The notes beneath the pieces were generated by a model. It made no database searches. It was not told the origin of the DNA and saw only the letters and a program-made list of their open reading frames with translations. The translations under genes and the position numbers were made by a program. A stretch of DNA of 49,389 bases from Minisyncoccota bacterium. Its GTDB lineage: Bacteria; Patescibacteriota; Minisyncoccia; UBA6257. The stretch spans positions 66,706 through 116,094 of the forward strand of contig JAQVJR010000002.1 of NCBI GenBank assembly GCA_028695015.1. The letters are read 5' to 3'. Below, piece after piece: positions 702 through 47,678 of this stretch; the first letter of the stretch is position 1, and every line of letters begins with the position of its first letter.

Positions 702-1841
702 TTATTTTTTAATTTTTTTGTTTCTTATAACTATTCTCATGTAAGGAATTACAGGTTTATTATTATCATCATAATATCCTAAAACTGGATGGTTTTCTTT
801 AATAAATCCAGTTTGGCCAGATTTATAATAATCTTCTACGAATTTCTTGCTTAGCCCAAAAGAAGTTAGCTCCCTATATAAATTACCTTGCCCCTGCCCT
901 ATAATTTCAAATTGCTCAGGATTATATTTATTAAGAAAAGTAATTGGCACGCCCATTGCTCCTTTATAATCAACAGGGATTTCCGTCACTTTATCTACAT
1001 TTATAGCATTGTAATTATCATACTTGGGATATTCTTTAGAAGAATATTTTTTATATAAAACTAATTTTTCATGGCGCTTTATATTATCAAAATTGGTATA
1101 CCAAATACAACCCTTAACAAATAGATATTTTTCACCATTTATAATTTTTGAATTTGCTACATTTTCATTTATAGGATAATCATCAGGAACTCTAAACCAA
1201 ATATTTCTTCCATCCATTGTAACCCCTAGCCAAAGATCATTATTTTTAATTAATTTAAAAATCTCTTTATAAGTAATAGCATTTACATTACCAATTATTA
1301 AAAACTTCTTTTTGTATTCTATTAGTTGTGCAACATACTCACGAAATAATGAAAAAGGAGGATTAGTCACAACTATATCTGCTTGTTTGAGTAATTCAAT
1401 GCACTCATCACTACGAAAATCACCATTGCCCTTTAAAGGAGTAGCGATGTTTTTATCTTGCTTAAGTAAATACTTAACATCTTCAAGACTTATGGTACCA
1501 TCTTTGTTCATATCAGGTACTTTTGTAATCTCAATTTTAAGTGGCTGTTTTCCTTTTGACCCTGCTACCTGAAATAATGGTAATTGACCCCCAATAATTG
1601 GTGATCCGTTATAACTTGTAGTGATAAGCTTTTTTAATTTAAATTCATTAAAATTAGCAGCAAAATATTTAAAAAAATTACTTTCATAAGGGTCATCACA
1701 ATTACAATAAACTATTTTGCCACGAAATTGGTTTTTATAATACTTAAGCTCTTTTTCTATATCGACTAATTGTGTGTAAAACTCATCCTTTTTCGCTTTG
1801 CTAGCTTTATGCAAGTTTTTATTTGTAGTTTTTCTTTTCAT
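702..1841 (-). CDS. Adenine-specific DNA methyltransferase, EcoRI family
   Basis: Family-typical N-terminus (KKDEFYTQLVDIEKEL, VYCNCDDP) and catalytic VVTNPPFSLFREY (NPPF) motif. Confidence 0.88.
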   Translation of the reverse strand: MKRKTTNKNLHKASKAKKDEFYTQLVDIEKELKYYKNQFRGKIVYCNCDDPYESNFFKYFAANFNEFKLKKLITTSYNGSPIIGGQLPLFQVAGSKGKQPLKIEITKVPDMNKDGTISLEDVKYLLKQDKNIATPLKGNGDFRSDECIELLKQADIVVTNPPFSLFREYVAQLIEYKKKFLIIGNVNAITYKEIFKLIKNNDLWLGVTMDGRNIWFRVPDDYPINENVANSKIINGEKYLFVKGCIWYTNFDNIKRHEKLVLYKKYSSKEYPKYDNYNAINVDKVTEIPVDYKGAMGVPITFLNKYNPEQFEIIGQGQGNLYRELTSFGLSKKFVEDYYKSGQTGFIKENHPVLGYYDDNNKPVIPYMRIVIRNKKIKK

Positions 1842-2144
1842 ATTTATTCTATTGTTTATAACATCATTTTAGCAAAAAATGCCCAGTGGGGCATTTATCC
1901 AAATATTCAATTTATTTCAAATAATGAGTAGCATTAAAACTATTATATAATAATAAAATCAATATGTCCATATATTGAATTTAGAAAAAGATAATAATTA
2001 AATAGCTTTTGTCTTATTTTTTCATTCTTTATTAATTATTTTCTATGATCCAAGTAAAAAAATTTAGTTTTTTAGGGTATAACTATATACCATGTTTCTC
2101 TAATTCATGATAGAATACCAAATAGCTATTCTGTATTTTTATCA

Positions 2145-2150
2145 TATAAT
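2145..2150 (+). promoter_or_regulatory. Putative -10 box (TATAAT) for the GH26 gene
   Basis: TATAAT 18 nt upstream of the ATG at 2169; no clear -35. The background is AT-rich. Confidence 0.35.
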
Positions 2151-2168
2151 AAGAGTATTCCAAAAATC

Positions 2169-3293
2169 ATGAATTTCACAAAAACAATCTTTTCTTTCTT
2201 AATTCTTGTTTTAATAACAACAGGAATGGTTTTTTTATTAAATAATTCTATGAATACATATAGAACTTATTCATATTTAGCAAATAATGAAATAGAAGAA
2301 AAAAATAATCTAATACTATTACCATCAGAAAATGGACTATATTTAGGAGCTTTTGCTGATTTTGGACCACATGAAAATGAAGTCACTGAAGAAAAAATAA
2401 ATGATTTTCAAGAATTAATTGGGAAAAAGATAACCTGGGCTTATTTCTCAGATAATTGGTTTGAGGGAATAAATTTTCCAAAAGAACAAGTAGAGATTTT
2501 ACAAGAACTTAATATTATCCCTTATATCCGCTTAATGCCCAGAACAAACTTTAGCAATCAACCTGAGGAACAAAAATATACATTAGAAAGTATTATTAAT
2601 AGTGACTTTGATTTAGAAATAGAAAATTGGGCTAAAATGGCTAAGCAAACCAATATTCCTTTAATTTTAGAATTTGGCACAGAAGTAAATGGAGATTGGT
2701 TTCCCTGGAATGGTAGATGGAATGGACAAGGTCAAACAGATCCTTATGGAGATCCAACATTACCTGATGGACCAGAGAAATTCATTGATGCTTATCAACA
2801 TATAATAGATATTTTTCATAATCTAGAAGTAAATAATATAACCTGGGTCTATCATATCAACACTCTCAGTCAACCAAAAGAACCTTGGAATGATATTATG
2901 TCTTATTATCCAGGGGATTCATATATAGATTGGATAGGAGTTAGTGTTTATGGAGCTCAAAATCTTAATGAAAAATGGATAGAATTCAATGATTTATTTG
3001 ATAAAACATATGAAAAAATAACCAAAACCACTAATAAACCTATTGCTATTGTTGAATTTGGAGCAGCAGAACAAAATGAACAAAATAAAAAAGCCGAATG
3101 GCTTAATAAATCATTATCTCTTATTTGTGAAAACAATTATCCTAATCTTAAAGGATTATCTTTCTGGCATTCTTCTTGGGTAAATAAAGATGGAACAAAA
3201 TCAAATCTTTTTATTGATTCTTCTCCAAAAGCCTTAGAAGCATTAAGAGAATTCTCTTCTAGTGATTGTTTTACCTCTGATCCAGCATTCTAA
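2169..3293 (+). CDS. Membrane-anchored glycoside hydrolase family 26 (beta-mannanase-like)
   Basis: N-terminal hydrophobic anchor; acid/base region EFGTEVNGDWFPW (GH26 E-x-NG-x-W); YYPGDSYIDWIGVSVY; nucleophile region IVEFG. Confidence 0.8.
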   Translation: MNFTKTIFSFLILVLITTGMVFLLNNSMNTYRTYSYLANNEIEEKNNLILLPSENGLYLGAFADFGPHENEVTEEKINDFQELIGKKITWAYFSDNWFEGINFPKEQVEILQELNIIPYIRLMPRTNFSNQPEEQKYTLESIINSDFDLEIENWAKMAKQTNIPLILEFGTEVNGDWFPWNGRWNGQGQTDPYGDPTLPDGPEKFIDAYQHIIDIFHNLEVNNITWVYHINTLSQPKEPWNDIMSYYPGDSYIDWIGVSVYGAQNLNEKWIEFNDLFDKTYEKITKTTNKPIAIVEFGAAEQNEQNKKAEWLNKSLSLICENNYPNLKGLSFWHSSWVNKDGTKSNLFIDSSPKALEALREFSSSDCFTSDPAF

Positions 3294-4399
3294 TCCTTGT
3301 AATTATTAATTGCCTTTATTATTCTTTGTGAAGCCTTGCCGTCACCAAAAGGATTTTTCCAATTTCTCTTTGAATTAAGCATTCTATTAACTGCTTTCAT
3401 AATATCCTTGGGATTATTTCCTGCTAGGATATTAGCTTTCACAGAAACACTTTCTGGTCTTTCTGTATTATATCTTAAAGTAACACAAGGAACTTTTAAA
3501 ATACAAGCTTCCTCTTGAATACCTCCAGAATCAGTTATTATTAATTTACTTTTTGATTGAAGAATTAACATATCAAAAAACCCAACTGGCTCTATTAATA
3601 TTAAATCTTTTATCTTTTTAAGACGATTAGATAAGTTAAAATGCTCAATCTGTTTTTTAGTTCTTGGGTGAATAGGCCAAATTATTGGCATTTTGTATTT
3701 TAAAGAGATTCCTCCTAAAGCATCTATAATATTAGATAAATTTAATTTTGAATCTGTATTATCAGGACGATGGACTGTTGTTAATATAAAATCTTTTTTC
3801 TCTATCTTAAGTTTTTTAAGAATTTTTGACTTTTTCTGAGCAATTTTCAAACTTTGAAATAAAGCATCAACTACAGTATTTCCTGTGACAAAAATCTTAG
3901 ATTTCTCAATTCCTTCTTTTAATAAATTCTTTTTAGCATTAATAGTTGGTGCAAAATGTAAAGTAGCAACAGAACCTGTTAAAACACGGTTAACCTCTTC
4001 TGGCATTGTTCGGTCATAACTTCTTAATCCTGCTTCTATATGAGCTATGGGTATTTGTAATTTTGCAGCTACCAAGGCTCCAGCTAGTACAGAATTAGTA
4101 TCACCCTGAACCAAAACAAATCGAGGTTTTTTTCTCATTAATATCTTCTCAATCCCTTCCATCATTTTTAAGGCTTGAGCTACATGAGTGCCAGATCCAG
4201 TATGTAAATTATAATCTAAAGCAGGAAGATTTAATTCTTTCCAAAAAATAGCATCCATATTTTTAGAATAATGTTGCCCAGTATGTAAGGTAATAAAAGG
4301 TGTTTTTGTTCGAACACATTCTCTAATCACTGAAGAGATTTTTATTATCTCTGGTCGAGTACCAAAGACAAAACATATTGGTTTAATTTGTTTTTTCAT
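3290..4399 (-). CDS. wecB: UDP-N-acetylglucosamine 2-epimerase (non-hydrolysing)
   Basis: FGTRPEIIK, HTGQHY, VQGDT, HIEAGLRS, PEEVNR, TDSGGIQEEA and TERPE motifs. Confidence 0.95.
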   Translation of the reverse strand: MKKQIKPICFVFGTRPEIIKISSVIRECVRTKTPFITLHTGQHYSKNMDAIFWKELNLPALDYNLHTGSGTHVAQALKMMEGIEKILMRKKPRFVLVQGDTNSVLAGALVAAKLQIPIAHIEAGLRSYDRTMPEEVNRVLTGSVATLHFAPTINAKKNLLKEGIEKSKIFVTGNTVVDALFQSLKIAQKKSKILKKLKIEKKDFILTTVHRPDNTDSKLNLSNIIDALGGISLKYKMPIIWPIHPRTKKQIEHFNLSNRLKKIKDLILIEPVGFFDMLILQSKSKLIITDSGGIQEEACILKVPCVTLRYNTERPESVSVKANILAGNNPKDIMKAVNRMLNSKRNWKNPFGDGKASQRIIKAINNYKD

Positions 4400-30709: not shown

Positions 30710-32233
30710 TCATAATGCAAGACTTAAATTAAAAGTAACTCCTTCGGTAGTCTCTACTAAACCAGAAAGAGGTAAAGAAATATCAGCAAACAAACCAGTT
30801 AATCCTAAAGAATCTTTAAAAGAAATAATTGATTCTTTAATTGAAGAATTGCCTTGAATAGTGATATTGTTAGCTGGTTCTGAACTGATAAACACCCTTT
30901 TTATATGCACTGAAGATTGATTGGCATTATCAAAAATTGCTTCTAGGACATTCTTCCAGTCTTTTTGATATTTTTCAATATTAGAGACCTGAGCTACTAA
31001 TTTATTAAATTCATTAGCCGCTTCTGTTAAATTAGCCTCTTTATCGACTGTCTTTTGTTCTAAAGGCTTGGCAATTGCTAATTGATATTGATTCTCAATA
31101 TCTAAAAAGAAAAAATTACTAATTAACCCTAAGGATAGCACCAAAGCAATTAGAACTGCAATTATTGCCTTGCTCCATAAAGAAACTAATCTTAAGAGTT
31201 GGTGTTGTTCGTAGCTTTGTTCAGTACCCACAGGAGCCAAACTAACAATTGTATCCTTATTTCGCGGAATAAGTCCTCTTAGAGCTGCACCTAGAACTCC
31301 AAACCAGTCACCACTTATTTGTTTGAGATGAGAAGGCAGCTTTGTCTCCCCAGGTACTAATTGATACTGAACTTGAATCCATCTTTTCAAAACATTGGCT
31401 AATTGATTATTAAAACTGAAAAATACAAATTTCTGAAGAACTTTCTTTCTTTTTAAAGAATAAAAATTCAACAAAACAGGTATTTCACAAGAAATATGTT
31501 TTTTTAATATGTCAAAGGTAATTTGTTTTGGAATGTCTTTGCCAAAAATCTCTTCCCAAGAATCAAAATCAAAATAAATTGTTTTTTCACCTTCAGCAAT
31601 CACAAACTCAATACCTTCAGGCCTTAAATCAATTATTAGGACCGGTTCTTCTTTTTCTATAAACTTATTGTTAAAACGAGCCAAAGAAACTGCCAATGGC
31701 TCTACAGCCACCACATTAAATCCAGATTCTTTTAAAATTTCCAAATATGGATCAATTTGTTTTTTAACTCCCAAAGCCACAAAAACCTCTTTTTCTCCAT
31801 TTCTATTTGCTACACCCCAATCTTCCCAATCAAAATAAGATTCTTCTAAAGAAAGAGGAGCCACCATTTGAGTATTAAAAACTATGGCTTCATTAAATCT
31901 TTCTTCTTCTAAATCTGGTAGATTAAAGATATGAATAAAGAAATTAGCAGAAGGCAAAGTTAAAATAGTCCAAATTGTTTTTTCTTTTGGCCAAAGTTTC
32001 TTATACAGAGAATTAAAAAAAGACTTTAAATATTCTGGCTTTTTTAAAATCCCTTCTTCTATTATCCCCTTAGGTAAAGCATATTTTCCCCACCTAGCAA
32101 TTCTTTCAATTTTTTTATCAAAACAAAAAACTCTTACCACTCTATCTTCAATGCTAATAGCATTAACTGTAAATTCAGGAACTAATAATTTATGCCAATC
32201 TTTTGAAGAAAACTTATGTTTCATATTTTTCAT
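30710..32233 (-). CDS. Type IV pilus assembly PilM-PilN-like fusion protein (probable true start 32224)
   Basis: N-terminal actin-like PilM region (LPKGIIEEG, VAVEPLAVSLAR, IIDL), one TM near aa 355-380, coiled coil, PilN-like C-terminus (ITIQG, LFADISL). Confidence 0.7.
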   Translation of the reverse strand: MKNMKHKFSSKDWHKLLVPEFTVNAISIEDRVVRVFCFDKKIERIARWGKYALPKGIIEEGILKKPEYLKSFFNSLYKKLWPKEKTIWTILTLPSANFFIHIFNLPDLEEERFNEAIVFNTQMVAPLSLEESYFDWEDWGVANRNGEKEVFVALGVKKQIDPYLEILKESGFNVVAVEPLAVSLARFNNKFIEKEEPVLIIDLRPEGIEFVIAEGEKTIYFDFDSWEEIFGKDIPKQITFDILKKHISCEIPVLLNFYSLKRKKVLQKFVFFSFNNQLANVLKRWIQVQYQLVPGETKLPSHLKQISGDWFGVLGAALRGLIPRNKDTIVSLAPVGTEQSYEQHQLLRLVSLWSKAIIAVLIALVLSLGLISNFFFLDIENQYQLAIAKPLEQKTVDKEANLTEAANEFNKLVAQVSNIEKYQKDWKNVLEAIFDNANQSSVHIKRVFISSEPANNITIQGNSSIKESIISFKDSLGLTGLFADISLPLSGLVETTEGVTFNLSLAL

Positions 32234-42320: not shown

Positions 42321-43532
42321 TTAAAATTGTCCTACTAATTGATAAACTGGCACTATTAATGAAAGAGCTATACCACCAACCACAGCTCCTAGAAAGAGCA
42401 ATAGTAAAGGCTCTAACATTGAAACTAAAGTTTTTAATGAACCTTCAATTTCTACCTCATAAAATTCAGAAAGAGTTCTTAAAATTTCTTCTGTATGTCC
42501 AGCTTTTTCACCAATGGCTAAAAGATTAGAGACCACTGCTGGAAAAATTGTTTCTTTTTTAAAAGAATCACCAATACTTAATCCTCTAGCTAAATGTTCT
42601 TTTGCAATCCTGTTTAAAGCTGATTCATATTTAGGATGACCAACCGCTCCAGCAGTAATTTCAATTGCCTGAATAATTGACATTCCAGCCCTGATTAAAC
42701 TGGATAAAACACTAGCAAATCTTTCCAAAGCCATTTTTTCCATTAAATCACGAGAAATAGGAATTTTCTCTAATAAATTCGCAAATAATTCCTTTCCTTT
42801 AGTTGTTTTTCTAAAATATAAGAACAAACCCACTGGAATACCAATAATAATTGGTAAAACCAAGAAAATATTTCTGTTTAAAAACATGCCTGCAGATAAA
42901 ACCACTTTTGTAAATGTAGGAATTGCCTGTCCAGTGCCTAAAAACATTTCTCCTAATTTAGGCACAGCAAAAGTCACTAAAAAGAGAATCATAAAAAAAG
43001 AAGCAATCATTAAAGCAATCGGGTAAACCAAAGAAGATTTTACCTTGGTTTGTAAATTCCTATCTCTTTCCATGCTCACAGAAACCTGCTCTAAAGTAGC
43101 TTCTAGATTACCAGAAGACTCCCCGGCTTTAATTAAATTAGCCACTACTGGAGAAAAATAATCTGGATGTTGAGCAAATGCCTTCCAAAAAGGCTCACCT
43201 TTTTCCAGATTAGTTCTTATCTCTAATAAAAACCTCCTAGCTAACCCTGATTCAAAATCCTGAATTAAAATATCTATGGCGCTGAATAAATCAGTACCCA
43301 CTTTTAACATCAAGGCCAAGTATTTGGTTAAGAAAACCTTATCGGTCAAACTAAGAGTTTTCTTAAAAATCGCTATCTCTTTTTTATCCTGTTCTAAGAT
43401 TAAGGGCTTGACTGAAAGAGGTTTTAATCTCTGAGCAGTCAAATATTCTAAAACCGCTTCAATGTTAGGTTGATTAATATTTCCTTCTTTGATATGGCCT
43501 TTTTGATCCTGAGCCAGATAATGAAACAACAT
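42321..43532 (-). CDS. pilC: Type IV pilus inner-membrane platform protein (GspF family)
   Basis: AGESSGNLEATL, KVKSSLVYP, AIGEKAG, EPLLLLFLG. Confidence 0.93.
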   Translation of the reverse strand: MLFHYLAQDQKGHIKEGNINQPNIEAVLEYLTAQRLKPLSVKPLILEQDKKEIAIFKKTLSLTDKVFLTKYLALMLKVGTDLFSAIDILIQDFESGLARRFLLEIRTNLEKGEPFWKAFAQHPDYFSPVVANLIKAGESSGNLEATLEQVSVSMERDRNLQTKVKSSLVYPIALMIASFFMILFLVTFAVPKLGEMFLGTGQAIPTFTKVVLSAGMFLNRNIFLVLPIIIGIPVGLFLYFRKTTKGKELFANLLEKIPISRDLMEKMALERFASVLSSLIRAGMSIIQAIEITAGAVGHPKYESALNRIAKEHLARGLSIGDSFKKETIFPAVVSNLLAIGEKAGHTEEILRTLSEFYEVEIEGSLKTLVSMLEPLLLLFLGAVVGGIALSLIVPVYQLVGQF

Positions 43533-43542
43533 AAATATGTTT

Positions 43543-45249
43543 TTATTCTTTAATAACTCTTAAAACTTCTTCAATGGTTGTTAACCCTAATTCAGCTTTT
43601 TTCAATCCATCTTCAAACATTGATTTAGTTCCTTGAGCAAAAGCTATTTGTTTTAAACCATCAAGAGAAAAATCACTTTTTTGGATATAGGCTCTTACTT
43701 GTTCAGTAATATCTAAAATCTCATAAATAGCTAAACGACCTGAATAACCAGTACCCCCACATGCTTGACACCCTTTTCCTCGATATAATTGCTTAGCATG
43801 ATATGGAGAAGCTGTTTTGCCTTTTATTAATTGCAATTGTTCATTCACTACCTTAATAACATCTTCTGGTACCTCATAGCTTTCAATGCAGCCACGACAA
43901 ATTCTCCTAACTAATCTTTGAGCAATTATCAAATTAACAGTGGCTGAAACTAAAAAAGGAGGTACATCTAAATCAAATAATCGAGGCACTGCGGTCACTG
44001 CATCATTAGTATGCAAGGTAGAGAGTAAAAGATGACCAGTTAAAGAAGCATGAACAGAAATTTCTGCTGTTTCCTTGTCTCTAATTTCTCCCACCATAAT
44101 CACATCTGGGTCTTGTCTTAAAAAAGCCCTTAAACCATTAGCAAAATCTATTCCTGCTTTAGGATTTATCTGAGTCTGATTAACATATCTCAACTCATAC
44201 TCTATTGGATCTTCAATGGTTACAATATTAACCTCAGGTTTATTAAGTTTATTCAAAATCGCATACAAAGTAGTAGTCTTTCCTGAACCAGTAGGTCCAG
44301 TAACCAAAATCATGCCAGTGGTTTTAGTAATATTATTCTCAACTATCTTTACTGTTTCTTCCATCATTCCTAATTCTTGAAAACTCATTGGTTTTGAAGA
44401 ACCTGTTAAGAGACGCATTTCTACTTTTTCACCATAAAGCGTAGGCATAATAGCCACCCTGATATCAAAAATTGTATCTGCGTATTTGTATTTAAATCTT
44501 CCGTCTTGAGGTTTATTATGCTCATCAATAAGCAAATTTGATAAAATTTTAATCCTAGCCACAATAGCTAAATGGATTTCTTTAGCTAATCTTATTATCT
44601 CCCTTAAAACCCCATCAACTCGAAAACGAATCAAAATCTCATCACCTAAGGATTCAATATGAATATCGGTGGCATTTAAAGAAGCTGCATAAGAAATAAT
44701 ATTATCAGTTAAAGAAACAATTGGAAATTCAGTGGCTGCCTTTTCTGCTTCAACCTCTTTTAATCTCAAAGAAGAACGAATACTTTCCTGAATCATTTTC
44801 TGAAAATCTTTGGAAACTTCTTTTCCATATTGAGCAAAAACAAATTTTAAATCTTCTTCTAGGCATAAATGGGGTTTAATAAAATAACCTGTATATTTAT
44901 TCAAAAAATCTAATGTTTCCAAATTGGCTGGATCAAGCATTGCTACCATAATAGAATTATCTTCTTTACCAAAAACAACCACATTTCTTGTCTGGGCTAT
45001 TTCTTCAGGTAAAATATTAAGTATTTCTGTATCAATTTGCTGACCAACTAGTTTAATCCTGGGAATATTCAAATGCTTAGATAGAATATCTGCATAAAAA
45101 TCAGTGGTAATAAAATTACGAGAAATCAACAAGTCAATAATATTTTTTTCTGTTCTTTGAGCTTCTAAAACTAATTCGTCAAAGTCTTTCTCGCAAATTA
45201 ATCCTGTTCCTAAAATCAATTTTTTAAGAGTTTGAAGAGGCAAGCGCAT
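43543..45249 (-). CDS. pilB: Type IV pilus assembly ATPase (GspE/PulE family)
   Basis: ATDIHIE, PQDGR, TGPTGSGKTTT, TIEDPIEY, RQDPDVIMVGEIRD, TGHLLLSTLH, CxxC...CxxC. Confidence 0.95.
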   Translation of the reverse strand: MRLPLQTLKKLILGTGLICEKDFDELVLEAQRTEKNIIDLLISRNFITTDFYADILSKHLNIPRIKLVGQQIDTEILNILPEEIAQTRNVVVFGKEDNSIMVAMLDPANLETLDFLNKYTGYFIKPHLCLEEDLKFVFAQYGKEVSKDFQKMIQESIRSSLRLKEVEAEKAATEFPIVSLTDNIISYAASLNATDIHIESLGDEILIRFRVDGVLREIIRLAKEIHLAIVARIKILSNLLIDEHNKPQDGRFKYKYADTIFDIRVAIMPTLYGEKVEMRLLTGSSKPMSFQELGMMEETVKIVENNITKTTGMILVTGPTGSGKTTTLYAILNKLNKPEVNIVTIEDPIEYELRYVNQTQINPKAGIDFANGLRAFLRQDPDVIMVGEIRDKETAEISVHASLTGHLLLSTLHTNDAVTAVPRLFDLDVPPFLVSATVNLIIAQRLVRRICRGCIESYEVPEDVIKVVNEQLQLIKGKTASPYHAKQLYRGKGCQACGGTGYSGRLAIYEILDITEQVRAYIQKSDFSLDGLKQIAFAQGTKSMFEDGLKKAELGLTTIEEVLRVIKE

Positions 45250-45254
45250 AAAAA

Positions 45255-45878
45255 TTAAATATTAAATATATTTATCCCTATATATGTATTTATTATATCA
45301 TTTAAAAACAAAACAAGTAAGGCACAAGGAAACCAAAGATATAAAAAGGAAAAACGAGAATCTTTTATCTCTTTAAATAAATTAAAAACAATCACTAAAA
45401 AATGAATTAATAATCCCAATAATAAAACTAAACAAAGGTAAATTAAACAATTAGGCCAACCAATAATCAAAACTCCTAAACTAGCCAAGTACTTTTCTTC
45501 ATTATAAAAAAGATTTTCTTCAAATCTTCTATTTAACCAATAAATTCCTAAAAAGACTATTGAAGCAAATAAAATACTAACAACAGGCTCAAACCAATAA
45601 TGTTGCCAAGAATATTTTAAAAAATAAGAAATTGGATTATGGGGCGGCAATAACCGATAAGAAATAGAATCCTGAGACCAAATCCAATAATTTAAACAAG
45701 TCAATACAAAAGAACGAATAACTAATATCCCTGAAAAGCCAAAACAAGAAATCTTTAAATATCTTTCTTGAGGTAATTTTTTTTTAAAAAACCAATATAT
45801 CAAAAGCCCCGCTAAGATTATTAATCCCAAAGCGGGGCGTATAATTGAAAACAGAAATTTAATAAACCAATTTATCAT
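45255..45878 (-). CDS. Polytopic membrane protein of the pilus locus (weak resemblance to the A24 prepilin peptidase C-terminus)
   Basis: About 5-6 TM helices; EKYLASLGVLIIGWP resembles A24 GDxKL..LG...GW; lies between the pilins and pilB. Confidence 0.55.
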   Translation of the reverse strand: MINWFIKFLFSIIRPALGLIILAGLLIYWFFKKKLPQERYLKISCFGFSGILVIRSFVLTCLNYWIWSQDSISYRLLPPHNPISYFLKYSWQHYWFEPVVSILFASIVFLGIYWLNRRFEENLFYNEEKYLASLGVLIIGWPNCLIYLCLVLLLGLLIHFLVIVFNLFKEIKDSRFSFLYLWFPCALLVLFLNDIINTYIGINIFNI

Positions 45879-45929
45879 TACTAGACTAAAACCTTGAGTT
45901 AAAATATATCCTTAATGTTATAGCTAAAA

Positions 45930-46517
45930 CTAGGAATTATAACAACTAACACCTTTATTTATTGGAATAGAAAGATCTGTTCCTACTTCATAAAGCTCTG
46001 TTTCCTCACCTCCGTCATTTGCTCCAACATTATTAGTTCCACTCTGATAATAAGAACTTTCCATGCGGCTTACTAGTTTAAAACCGGTTTCTTCTTGATT
46101 AACAAGATAAACATAATAACGTCCATCAGGAGCATTATAATCTGTAGAATTAGGATCTATAGGTAGAGCACTAATCGGTGAACCTCCTGGCATATCTTGA
46201 AAATTTATAGGAACCCATCCACTTCCATTTATAGCAGGTGAGGTAGAAGCTTGATTAACCATTGTATTAGCACAATTAACATTTGCTTTATGTGAATAAG
46301 TTTGACCATAGTCACCTATATATGCAACAGAGTCTTCTACCATATAAAAAGAAATAGCTGTTTTAAGAGTGTTTAAATCAGAGATTCTTTGAGAATCACG
46401 AGCTTTAGCTAATAATTCAGCAGGGTTAATAACTAATACGATGGTGGTTGAAAGAATTGCTAAGATACCAATCACAATAAGCAATTCTAATAAAGTAAAT
46501 CCTTTTTTTGTATTCAT
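45930..46517 (-). CDS. Type IV pilin (copy B)
   Basis: KKG|FTLLELLIVI, ARDSQRISDL, LPIDP. Confidence 0.9.
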   Translation of the reverse strand: MNTKKGFTLLELLIVIGILAILSTTIVLVINPAELLAKARDSQRISDLNTLKTAISFYMVEDSVAYIGDYGQTYSHKANVNCANTMVNQASTSPAINGSGWVPINFQDMPGGSPISALPIDPNSTDYNAPDGRYYVYLVNQEETGFKLVSRMESSYYQSGTNNVGANDGGEETELYEVGTDLSIPINKGVSCYNS

Positions 46518-46525
46518 GTTAATTT
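46353..46525. repeat. 173-bp perfect direct repeat, copy 1 (5' region of pilin B)
   Basis: Identical to 47001-47173 on base-by-base reading. Confidence 0.95.
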
Positions 46526-46550
46526 ATTTTTTATTAATAAACTTATTTTA

Positions 46551-47165
46551 TTAAGTAATAAGTATGTCATAGACCCAATAACACCTATTCCTAATCTTAA
46601 TAGGGATACTAAGATTGGTGCCTGTTTCATAAAGCTCTGGCTCCACACCTCCGTCATTAGTTACTACGTCCCCTGAACCACTTTGAGAATAATATTTACT
46701 TTCCATATTAGCTATTAACTTAAAGCCGTTATTTCCATCAGTCATATAAACATAGTAAAAACTTTTATCCTCATCTGATACAGGATCTATGGGCAAAGAA
46801 CTAATTGGAGAATCGCCATTGCCTATTTTCGTAAAATTTATAGGAACCCATCCATTTCCATCTATTCTTGATGGATTTGAATTAAACCCTGAATTAAAAA
46901 TCTCGTCACCATCTTCCCCACAATTAATCTCTGCTAAATGTGAATAAGTATAACCATCTTCTCCTATGCTTTCTCCTGTTGTTTCTGTTAGAAACAAAGC
47001 AATAGCTGTTTTAAGAGTGTTTAAATCAGAGATTCTTTGAGAATCACGAGCTTTAGCTAATAATTCAGCAGGGTTAATAACTAATACGATGGTGGTTGAA
47101 AGAATTGCTAAGATACCAATCACAATAAGCAATTCTAATAAAGTAAATCCTTTTTTTGTATTCAT
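46551..47165 (-). CDS. Type IV pilin (copy A, promoter-proximal)
   Basis: Same class III signal and first 55 aa as 45930-46517. Confidence 0.9.
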   Translation of the reverse strand: MNTKKGFTLLELLIVIGILAILSTTIVLVINPAELLAKARDSQRISDLNTLKTAIALFLTETTGESIGEDGYTYSHLAEINCGEDGDEIFNSGFNSNPSRIDGNGWVPINFTKIGNGDSPISSLPIDPVSDEDKSFYYVYMTDGNNGFKLIANMESKYYSQSGSGDVVTNDGGVEPELYETGTNLSIPIKIRNRCYWVYDILIT

Positions 47166-47173
47166 GTTAATTT
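47001..47173. repeat. 173-bp perfect direct repeat, copy 2 (5' region of pilin A)
   Basis: Identical to 46353-46525. Confidence 0.95.
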
Positions 47174-47252
47174 TAATTGTATTTGAAATTTCGACCTAAT
47201 ATTTTAGAAATTTCATTTTTGTTATTTAATCGACCTTGTATTTAATATGTAT

Positions 47253-47280
47253 ATTTTACTATTTAAAAAATGTTTGTCAA
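47253..47280 (-). promoter_or_regulatory. Sigma70-like promoter of the pilin operon
   Basis: TTGACA (47280-47275), a 16-nt spacer, then TAAAAT (47258-47253). Confidence 0.65.
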
Positions 47281-47291
47281 TTTTAAAAATT

Positions 47292-47678
47292 CTATTCTAT
47301 TTTTATCTCTTGCTTTACTTTATTAACCAACTCTTCTACAGAAAGCCTAGCTTTGACAAAATAGTCAATAATTCCTAAAGCCTTGCCTCTTTCAATATCA
47401 GAAGGTTGACCAAGATTAGAAATTATTATTACAGGTAGTTTTTCTAACAAAGGATCTTGGCGAATGGTTTCTAAAACTTCAAATCCATTTTTTTTAGGTA
47501 AAATCAAATCTAAAAGAATTAAATCTGGTTTAATTCCTTGTTCAGTTAAAAAATGCAAAGCTTCTTCGCCATCTGCAGCTCGAATAACCTTAAAAGATTC
47601 CTTTTCTAATTTTAATCTTAAAACACTACTTAAAAAAGGATCATCTTCAATTAATAAAATCGTTGACTTGTTATTCAT
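47292..47678 (-). CDS. Single-domain response regulator (receiver only)
   Basis: ILLIEDD, PDLILLD (phospho-Asp), P..GFEVL, IIISN, DYFVK. Confidence 0.92.
   Translation of the reverse strand: MNNKSTILLIEDDPFLSSVLRLKLEKESFKVIRAADGEEALHFLTEQGIKPDLILLDLILPKKNGFEVLETIRQDPLLEKLPVIIISNLGQPSDIERGKALGIIDYFVKARLSVEELVNKVKQEIKIE

Follow-up and report, generated by a model that had tools for sequence, protein, structure and literature searches.

How can two neighbouring genes be identical, letter for letter, over one part of their length when the rest of them has diverged so far? This question is raised by a pair of pilin genes in a 49,389-nt stretch of contig JAQVJR010000002.1 (the window, from assembly GCA_028695015.1 of a Minisyncoccota bacterium), and all coordinates given here are window positions. 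The two genes, UP (upstream) and DN (downstream), are paralogous type IV major-pilin genes that head a pilus cluster of this Paceibacterota bacterium of the Candidate Phyla Radiation (CPR). Positions 46353-46525 equal positions 47001-47173 over exactly 173 nt, and the match breaks at once on either side. Both copies of this repeat (R) are on the minus strand and consist of the 8 nt 5' of the ATG and codons 1-55 of tandem open reading frames (ORFs). The segment has only these two copies within the window. An earlier reading made from the letters alone, here called the sequence-only reading, had claimed that the identity is perfect, including the synonymous sites and the 8 nt before the ATG, and the exact match with its sharp borders confirms this. 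It had also taken both genes to be full length, and this is borne out by ORFs of 204 aa and 195 aa, which are co-oriented, have their own start codons and are separated by a gap of 33 nt. Past codon 55 the two proteins are only 47-50% identical, and 21-22 of the 65-68 codons that encode the same residue in both heads differ synonymously. We argue that the perfect 5' identity is best read as the footprint of gene conversion or recombination, judging from the sequence comparisons below, and that it reflects neither selection nor artefact.

It is worth considering what the identical segment encodes. Its codons specify a class III signal peptide (MNTKKG↓FTLLE) and the whole alpha-1 helix. Both genes carry the prepilin cleavage/methylation motif (PF07963 N_methyl, E ~1e-7; TIGR02532, E ~2e-6; MNTKKG↓FTLLELLIVIG). 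An AlphaFold2 (AF2) model of DN, with a predicted local distance difference test score (pLDDT) of 80.7, has helices at residues 9-23 and 32-61 and then a beta-rich head. A Foldseek search of the PDB with this model found nothing significant, and the best match was a Shewanella pilin with E = 1.5. Going by the model, the head of this CPR pilin family appears to be structurally uncharacterised. The family itself is large. UP and DN belong to a group of Paceibacterota/CPR pilins of ~195-205 aa with 2,764 matches, and in a 31-sequence family alignment Cys82 is invariant and Cys192 nearly so.

The first thing to settle is whether there are two real copies. One can imagine an assembly artefact in which a single pilin, or two slightly different 5' ends, was mis-assembled into a perfect repeat. 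Short-read assemblers do break or collapse at repeats of 173 nt, and in many runs the Logan contigs stop at the edges of the downstream copy (R1). We used public data from 20 runs of 9 studies, which cover bioreactor, landfill, biofilm and anaerobic-digester metagenomes, in the form of Logan unitigs and contigs (k=31). The number of repeat copies per genome was gauged by unitig depth (~2x), which is a proxy. The locus is kept near-identical across all of these runs. In runs of different studies the repeat is one 173-nt unitig without bubbles at 1.8-2.3x the flank depth. The unitig graph is the same across studies: a piece that ends 30 nt into R1, the 173-nt repeat, a 535-nt unitig that holds the spacer and the UP head at flank depth, and the upstream flank. 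We call the left flank on the response-regulator side A, the UP-head unitig B, and the right flank on the membrane-gene side C. Low-coverage contigs cross either copy in the expected order, which is A-R-B in L001, X13 and X19 and B-R-C in X17. Both heads are equally deep in most samples. Repeat collapse is excluded because the repeat is a single ~2x unitig, the piece between is at 1x, and contigs cross each copy in order. All of this is what one expects if each genome has two identical copies that enclose one unit. An artefact would have to produce the same graph in independent runs of several studies, and we consider that extremely improbable.

Two real copies could also be kept identical without any recombination. 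Purifying selection might act on the nucleotides themselves, through mRNA structure, translation initiation or a regulatory RNA. The segment does include the 5' end of the mRNA, and the protein segment it encodes is almost invariant in the family. But its synonymous sites change freely between lineages. Our close relatives for comparison are the sister lineage (L113-L120, L124-L125) and L002, a contig of a metagenome-assembled genome. Both are fully syntenic with the window. Synonymous and nonsynonymous divergence (dS and dN) were calculated by the Nei-Gojobori method. The flanking genes of the three lineages differ by dS 0.12-0.38 and dN 0.005-0.03. Codons 1-55 of the pilins differ between lineages by dS 0.29-0.32 and dN 0-0.03, but both values are 0 between UP and DN. 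In the heads, UP and DN are separated by dS 0.77 and dN 0.43. The synonymous sites of the 55 codons thus diverge between close lineages at the background rate (dS ~0.30), and the constant module as a whole differs at ~6% of sites. Across the family these sites are about half-saturated, since ~50% of the same-residue codons in the constant segment differ synonymously between loci among 36 family genes. Run X5 also contains other strains, whose segment has synonymous variants. Because the dS between lineages is at background, selection on the nucleotides is refuted unless the constraint is strain-specific, and we give it next to no credence. Chance can be treated in the same way. Over the same 165 coding nt, this genome differs from either of two close relatives at 10 sites. 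Chance is excluded because 10 differences between UP and DN would be expected had they been independent at least since the sister-lineage split, and 0 are seen (P ~4e-5).

The history of the heads provides another line of reasoning. The DN head groups with the sister-lineage pilin L112 (clade support 100/99) and shares indels with it. On this sequence evidence the DN head is the ortholog of the single pilin of the sister lineage (P0123). The informative nucleotide sites disagree on either side of the repeat border. In codons 1-55 there are 10 sites that unite UP with DN, and 0 that unite either DN or UP with L112. In the head the counts are 44 for UP with DN, 87 for DN with L112 and 32 for UP with L112. 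The contrast between the two parts is strong (Fisher p = 3.9e-5), and the genealogy switches at codon 55/56. Conversion or recombination classically leaves such a switch. Both heads are old, as far as the DN+L112 clade, the site patterns and the dS values tell. The sequence-only reading had spoken of ongoing gene conversion, and the recombination part of that claim is borne out by the synonymous sites that are free between lineages and by the discordant 5' and 3' histories. An orthology of UP with the upstream pilin of L002 was also considered. Its support was weak (89/93) and there was no signal at the nucleotide level, so it was dropped.

The sister lineage also has a different number of pilins. 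Its locus reads LAGLIDADG ORF, response regulator, one pilin (196 aa, DN type), membrane gene, PilB and PilC. This was read in 20 contigs from NCBI assemblies, ENA assemblies (with SPAdes-style and MEGAHIT-style contig names) and Logan. When the sister locus is aligned to the window exactly one 648-bp period is missing, that is, one repeat and the UP head. The placement of this unit is equivalent anywhere within the repeat, so 46353-47000 would serve as well as the coordinates in our table. The left flank has 96.8% identity to the sister lineage (vs 89.1%), which was tried as a sign of mosaicism but reflects the 16S rRNA gene, with its intron, in that flank. It must be mentioned that the sister-type pilin ends early in one sample (L112 67-618; 183 aa, ending ...YEVGTIFL and a stop) and is without the C-terminal Cys. 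This short form is a truncated allele or an assembly error; the other samples have 196 aa (P0123).

The number of pilins appears to vary inside the strain too. Most runs with adequate depth (X2, X3, X5, X7, X8, X12, X13, X14) have the UP head at flank depth. The depths of A, C, B and R are 24.8, 25.3, 23.1 and 45 in X2, 9.4, 8.3, 8.2 and 17.1 in X7, and 8, 6.1, 7.1 and 16.1 in X14. In X5 A is at 61, C at 58 and B at 56.2, with R not resolved. The bioreactor run X4 has A at 47.2 (986 nt, 0 differences), C at 44.7 (7368 nt, 0 differences), B at 11.1 and R at 54.1. X4 would be mostly one-pilin, since B is at 11.1x vs flanks at 45-47x and R is about as deep as A+B, not 2A. Most simply, about three quarters of the X4 genomes would be A-R-C with DN only and one quarter A-R-B-R-C, with identical flanks. 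The sequence-only reading had thought of collapsed arrays. A one-pilin form is indeed found in the sister lineage, and unitig depth indicates one within the strain in X4. In X11 and X20, from another study, the UP head is under-represented or partly uncovered at low depth, which is suggestive. X1 was tried as a second deletion case (B/C = 0.64) and is ambiguous, with a co-occurring strain that has an L002-type response-regulator allele. In X10 a 655-nt Logan contig leads out of the UP head, across the repeat and into the spacer again (it goes back 648). An array of three units or an excised circle of 648 bp could give such a contig, but the simplest account is a path round the R-B cycle of the de Bruijn graph at a place where junction words were missing, and we do not count it as evidence.

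Other close lineages keep the slot and differ in what fills it. L002 has two pilins in the same slot, with heads unrelated to UP or DN. In a fourth close lineage, L121-L123, from biogas and other metagenomes, a head of the type of the downstream L002 pilin (L002dn) adjoins the membrane gene. The contigs of this lineage, from three samples and two assemblers, all break inside the constant region, which suggests that it has a perfect repeat there too. Between lineages the heads in the slot differ by dN 0.28-0.57, vs dN 0.005-0.03 for the flanks. The sequence-only reading had expected mosaicism across strains. Different heads do occupy the same slots of close lineages, but hybrids between heads were not observed. 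Elsewhere in the family, 2-4 pilins often stand in tandem arrays, and the longest exact match in them is mostly in the 5' constant part. In the L002 pair this match is 113 nt, 35 nt of them non-coding. L035 has four tandem family pilins at 1436-3965, and two non-adjacent copies share an exact run of 179 nt (gene positions 25-203). Three of the four heads in this array are recent duplicates. The flanking genes of the three lineages do not agree on a closest pair either. In pilB (dS 0.18) and the membrane gene (dS 0.12) this pair is the sister lineage with L002; in pilC (dS 0.21) and the response regulator (dS 0.20) it is the window with the sister lineage. This indicates that the three close lineages are probably mosaics across 42321-47678 and that recombination along the pilus cluster is frequent.

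We propose the following scenario, which we consider fairly likely overall. The constant module is fused to two old and very different heads, and it would serve both as the helix of the filament core and as a homology arm. Homologous recombination between the tandem copies, by gene conversion or unequal exchange and probably dependent on RecA, would keep the module identical. The homogenised tract would end where homology and protein conservation end. The copies are direct repeats, and therefore crossing over between them also deletes the unit that lies between them. Such an event would remove one 648-bp unit, the UP head and one repeat, and leave a single-pilin locus. This form is fixed in the sister lineage and, by depth, makes up about three quarters of the genomes in X4. 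Across lineages the conserved module and flanks may also allow the heads to be replaced. Since the alpha-1 helices are identical, one machine could assemble both pilins, possibly into one filament. We infer conversion rather than a very recent duplication of the module, and deletion rather than insertion. Our confidence in an old pair that would have undergone conversion and recurrent deletion, as the sequences suggest, is middling, with the chances about even.

One can imagine the opposite polarity. Here the ancestor would have had one pilin (A-R-C), and a foreign or population-borne R-B unit would have been inserted via the constant region. The repeats would then be identical since the duplication is young, not through conversion, and the one-pilin genomes of X4 would be ancestral. 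The UP head does have a long branch and no relative above 46% identity among 5.8 billion proteins. The sister lineage does have one pilin. The flanks of both X4 forms are identical over 8.3 kb, so the event that separates them must be very recent. CPR bacteria are also reportedly naturally transformable (PMC10633639). But a donor would need an identical module, when ~6% of its sites differ between lineages, or else conversion would still be needed after integration. A tandem pair also fills the same slot in L002, and arrays are frequent in the family. Deletion between direct repeats requires no donor at all, and in most runs that are deep enough the two-pilin form is fully represented. A recent capture of the UP module is possible, but we think it rather unlikely.

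Several points weigh against our preferred scenario of an old pair with conversion and deletion. The first is polarity itself, as a recent insertion of the UP module could equally give identical repeats. The second is that an approximately unbiased (AU) test on the head proteins leaves the UP+DN clade unrejected (p = 0.12), so the protein tree alone is not decisive. The third is that the 5' parts of L051/L049 and of L002 are not clearly closer within a genome than between genomes, and concerted evolution across the family is only partly shown. Finally, the deletion form within the strain depends on Logan unitig depths and is clear in X4 only. The repeat exceeds k=31, so A-R-C is not spanned unambiguously, and no long-read runs (Nanopore, PacBio) are listed.

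A bolder reading can be built on the same data. The near-invariant 5' module might be a universal recombination socket in Paceibacterota, with heads that are plugged in, swapped and dropped at the slot between the response regulator and pilB. Uptake might even go through the same pilus, a library of cassettes might be held in the pangenome, and the whole might tune the binding of host cells. Taken as one package we find this doubtful.

The sequence-only reading had likened the pattern to Neisseria pilin antigenic variation. In a model of this kind head segments would be exchanged at high frequency via short conserved islands, as a programmed second diversification route for the pilus. The resemblance is easy to see, as there is a constant N-terminus followed by alternating conserved and variable blocks in the heads. 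But both genes are full length with their own starts, and the repeat is present about twice per genome by depth. The window has no silent truncated copies and no further head or N-terminal fragments. It has no G-quadruplex (G4) motif (G3+N1-7 x4) on either strand. The heads are nearly invariant across the 20 runs, with 0 differences in most and one single-nucleotide polymorphism each otherwise, although contigs can hide rare variants. One of these is 46256 T>C, which is N88D in DN and fixed in runs of two studies. The other is 46815 G>A, which is synonymous in UP and found in one study. With near-invariant heads and no hybrids among them, diversification through head exchange is largely refuted, and with no silent donors or G4 motif in the window and two copies only the Neisseria pattern itself fails. 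We consider programmed variation of this kind highly unlikely.

The islands need a different explanation. The shared blocks GWVPINF, SPIxxLPIDP, GFKL and NDGG..ELYE.GT, which the sequence-only reading had described as partly identical at the DNA level, are real, but their DNA identity shows no clear excess. In the 31-member alignment the invariant or nearly invariant parts are the 55 N-terminal residues, GW(I/V)P, GGSPI..LP.DP, YYVY, FKL, MES.YY, DGG....LYE.GT and C..CY. Five pilins of the three lineages have the same residue at 39 head columns. Synonymous differences between UP and DN occur at 11/39 of these codons, and between the other pairs, including pairs from different genomes, at 13-16/39. 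We argue that the islands are framework motifs of the family. Their DNA identity, so far as codon comparison can tell, is what codon usage gives, and it carries no sign of micro-conversion in the heads.

How do the known systems compare? The pilE-pilS system of Neisseria gonorrhoeae and N. meningitidis resembles this locus in its constant N-terminal region, its variable head with conserved blocks and its recombination within a pilin family. Unlike it, our window has two full-length genes only, without promoterless 5'-truncated donors or a G4 initiator. No head variation is seen within populations, and what recombines here is the constant part, or a module as a whole, and not minicassettes of the heads. 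Switching by a Moraxella Piv-type invertase was considered as well and rejected, as both copies lie in the same orientation on one strand, as direct repeats. The Pfam scan of 20 window ORFs, which included every ORF in and beside the pilus cluster, brought up no recombinase.

A closer parallel exists in Streptococcus sanguinis. There PilE1 and PilE2 are two tandem major pilins with identical N-termini that co-polymerise in heteropolymeric type IV pili (PMC6497953). As in our locus, the major-pilin genes are adjacent inside the pil cluster, and with identical N-termini one peptidase and one machine can handle both and build a uniform core. PilE1 and PilE2 are ~80% identical overall, whereas our heads are only 47% identical and old. 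To our knowledge, polymorphism in the presence or absence of a gene is not part of the S. sanguinis picture. The pattern is also like the concerted evolution of tandem bacterial paralogs, in which divergent paralogs have a sharp-edged identical tract and the phylogeny is discordant across its border. It differs from the usual case in that the tract here is a functional module of signal peptide and alpha-1 helix, and homogenisation would also keep the two subunits compatible in one filament. The missing unit is like the product of RecA-type deletion between direct repeats, which keeps exactly one repeat.

The pilA groups of Pseudomonas aeruginosa and the fimA serogroups of Dichelobacter nodosus are allelic pilin islands, in which the N-terminus is conserved and the C-terminal domains can be replaced. 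Our locus is like these in that close lineages have almost the same flanks and 5' segment but unrelated heads in the same slot. It is unlike them in having two tandem slots, with an occupancy of 1 or 2 (up to 4 in relatives), and no accessory genes that travel with the heads. It must be said that no new mechanism is involved here. Tandem-paralog conversion, repeat-mediated deletion and allelic pilin heads are all known, and what is new is this Paceibacterota example. The new observations are the one-pilin locus of the sister lineage, the depth polymorphism in X4, the different heads in the same slots and the near-invariant heads within the strain.

Changes in pilin repertoire are little studied in CPR bacteria. 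Type IV pili are the best-supported tool of host attachment in CPR/Patescibacteria (PMC11623550), and host binding may depend on how many heads there are and of what kind. This locus is a natural example in which recombination apparently keeps the core module of two major pilins identical, and the repeat formed by that module allows a whole head module to be dispensed with over short periods. Whether the response-regulator gene and the membrane gene enclose one pilin or two is a simple marker, whose two states can be counted in public metagenomes. It could be used to link pilin content to habitat or host in anaerobic digesters.

Table. Features of the pilin pair and of the pilus cluster around it, in window positions.
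Feature	Position	Strand	Details
Upstream constant-module copy (R2)	47001..47173	minus	Leader of 8 nt and UP codons 1-55; exact identity, single ~2x unitig
Downstream constant-module copy (R1)	46353..46525	minus	Leader of 8 nt and DN codons 1-55; exact identity
Pilin gene UP	46551..47165	minus	204 aa; head 46551-47000
Pilin gene DN	45930..46517	minus	195 aa; head 45930-46352
648-bp gain/loss unit	46526..47173	minus	Constant module, UP head and 25-nt spacer
Stand-alone response-regulator receiver gene (flank A)	47292..47678	minus	Pfam Response_reg
Polytopic membrane protein, family unassigned (flank C)	45255..45878	minus	207 aa; 146 homologs at E<=1e-20
PilB assembly ATPase	43543-45249	minus	Pfam T2SSE (1.9e-123), MshEN
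PilC platform protein	42321-43532	minus	Pfam T2SSF (2.1e-47)
PilM	30710-32233		Pfam scan
Sigma-70-like promoter candidate	47253..47280	minus	TTGACA-16-TAAAAT, 11/12, ~88 nt before UP start; consensus scan only

The order of genes on the minus strand is response-regulator receiver, UP, DN, the 207-aa membrane protein, PilB, PilC and four large pilin-like proteins, with PilM further on. In all related lineages the pilin slot is bordered on its left by the response-regulator gene, which is conserved, as the synteny of L002 and L113-L120 attests. From their place in the cluster, PilB and PilC are the machinery that would assemble both pilins. The 207-aa membrane gene stands between the pilin and PilB at every locus fetched, and its product has no Pfam or NCBIfam match. 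Scans of 20 window ORFs against Pfam, in which about half of the ORFs of at least 90 aa were covered, and of 4 against NCBIfam yielded no A24 prepilin peptidase. Because no such peptidase is among the 20 scanned ORFs, the membrane protein could be a divergent prepilin peptidase or a pilus-specific factor.

The sigma-70-like candidate in the table is the sole strong one ahead of the pilin pair, and the consensus scan found no comparable site in the 33-nt gap. Since a strong promoter candidate lies before UP and none lies in the gap, the arrangement fits co-transcription, and UP and DN are probably transcribed together. Metatranscriptome contigs from two studies match 46641-46784, in the UP head, and 46906-47057, at the border of the repeat and the UP head, with 0-1 differences. 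Nothing of the DN head was recovered from the metatranscriptomes, at very low coverage. Transcription of UP is thus hinted at by these contigs. Right after the pilin pair, at 45804-45840 on the minus strand and just inside the 5' end of the membrane-protein ORF, there is a GC-rich hairpin (GCCCCGC ... GCGGGGC) with a long loop, followed by TTTT. It was seen by eye, being absent from the list of the terminator scan, and it might attenuate read-through.

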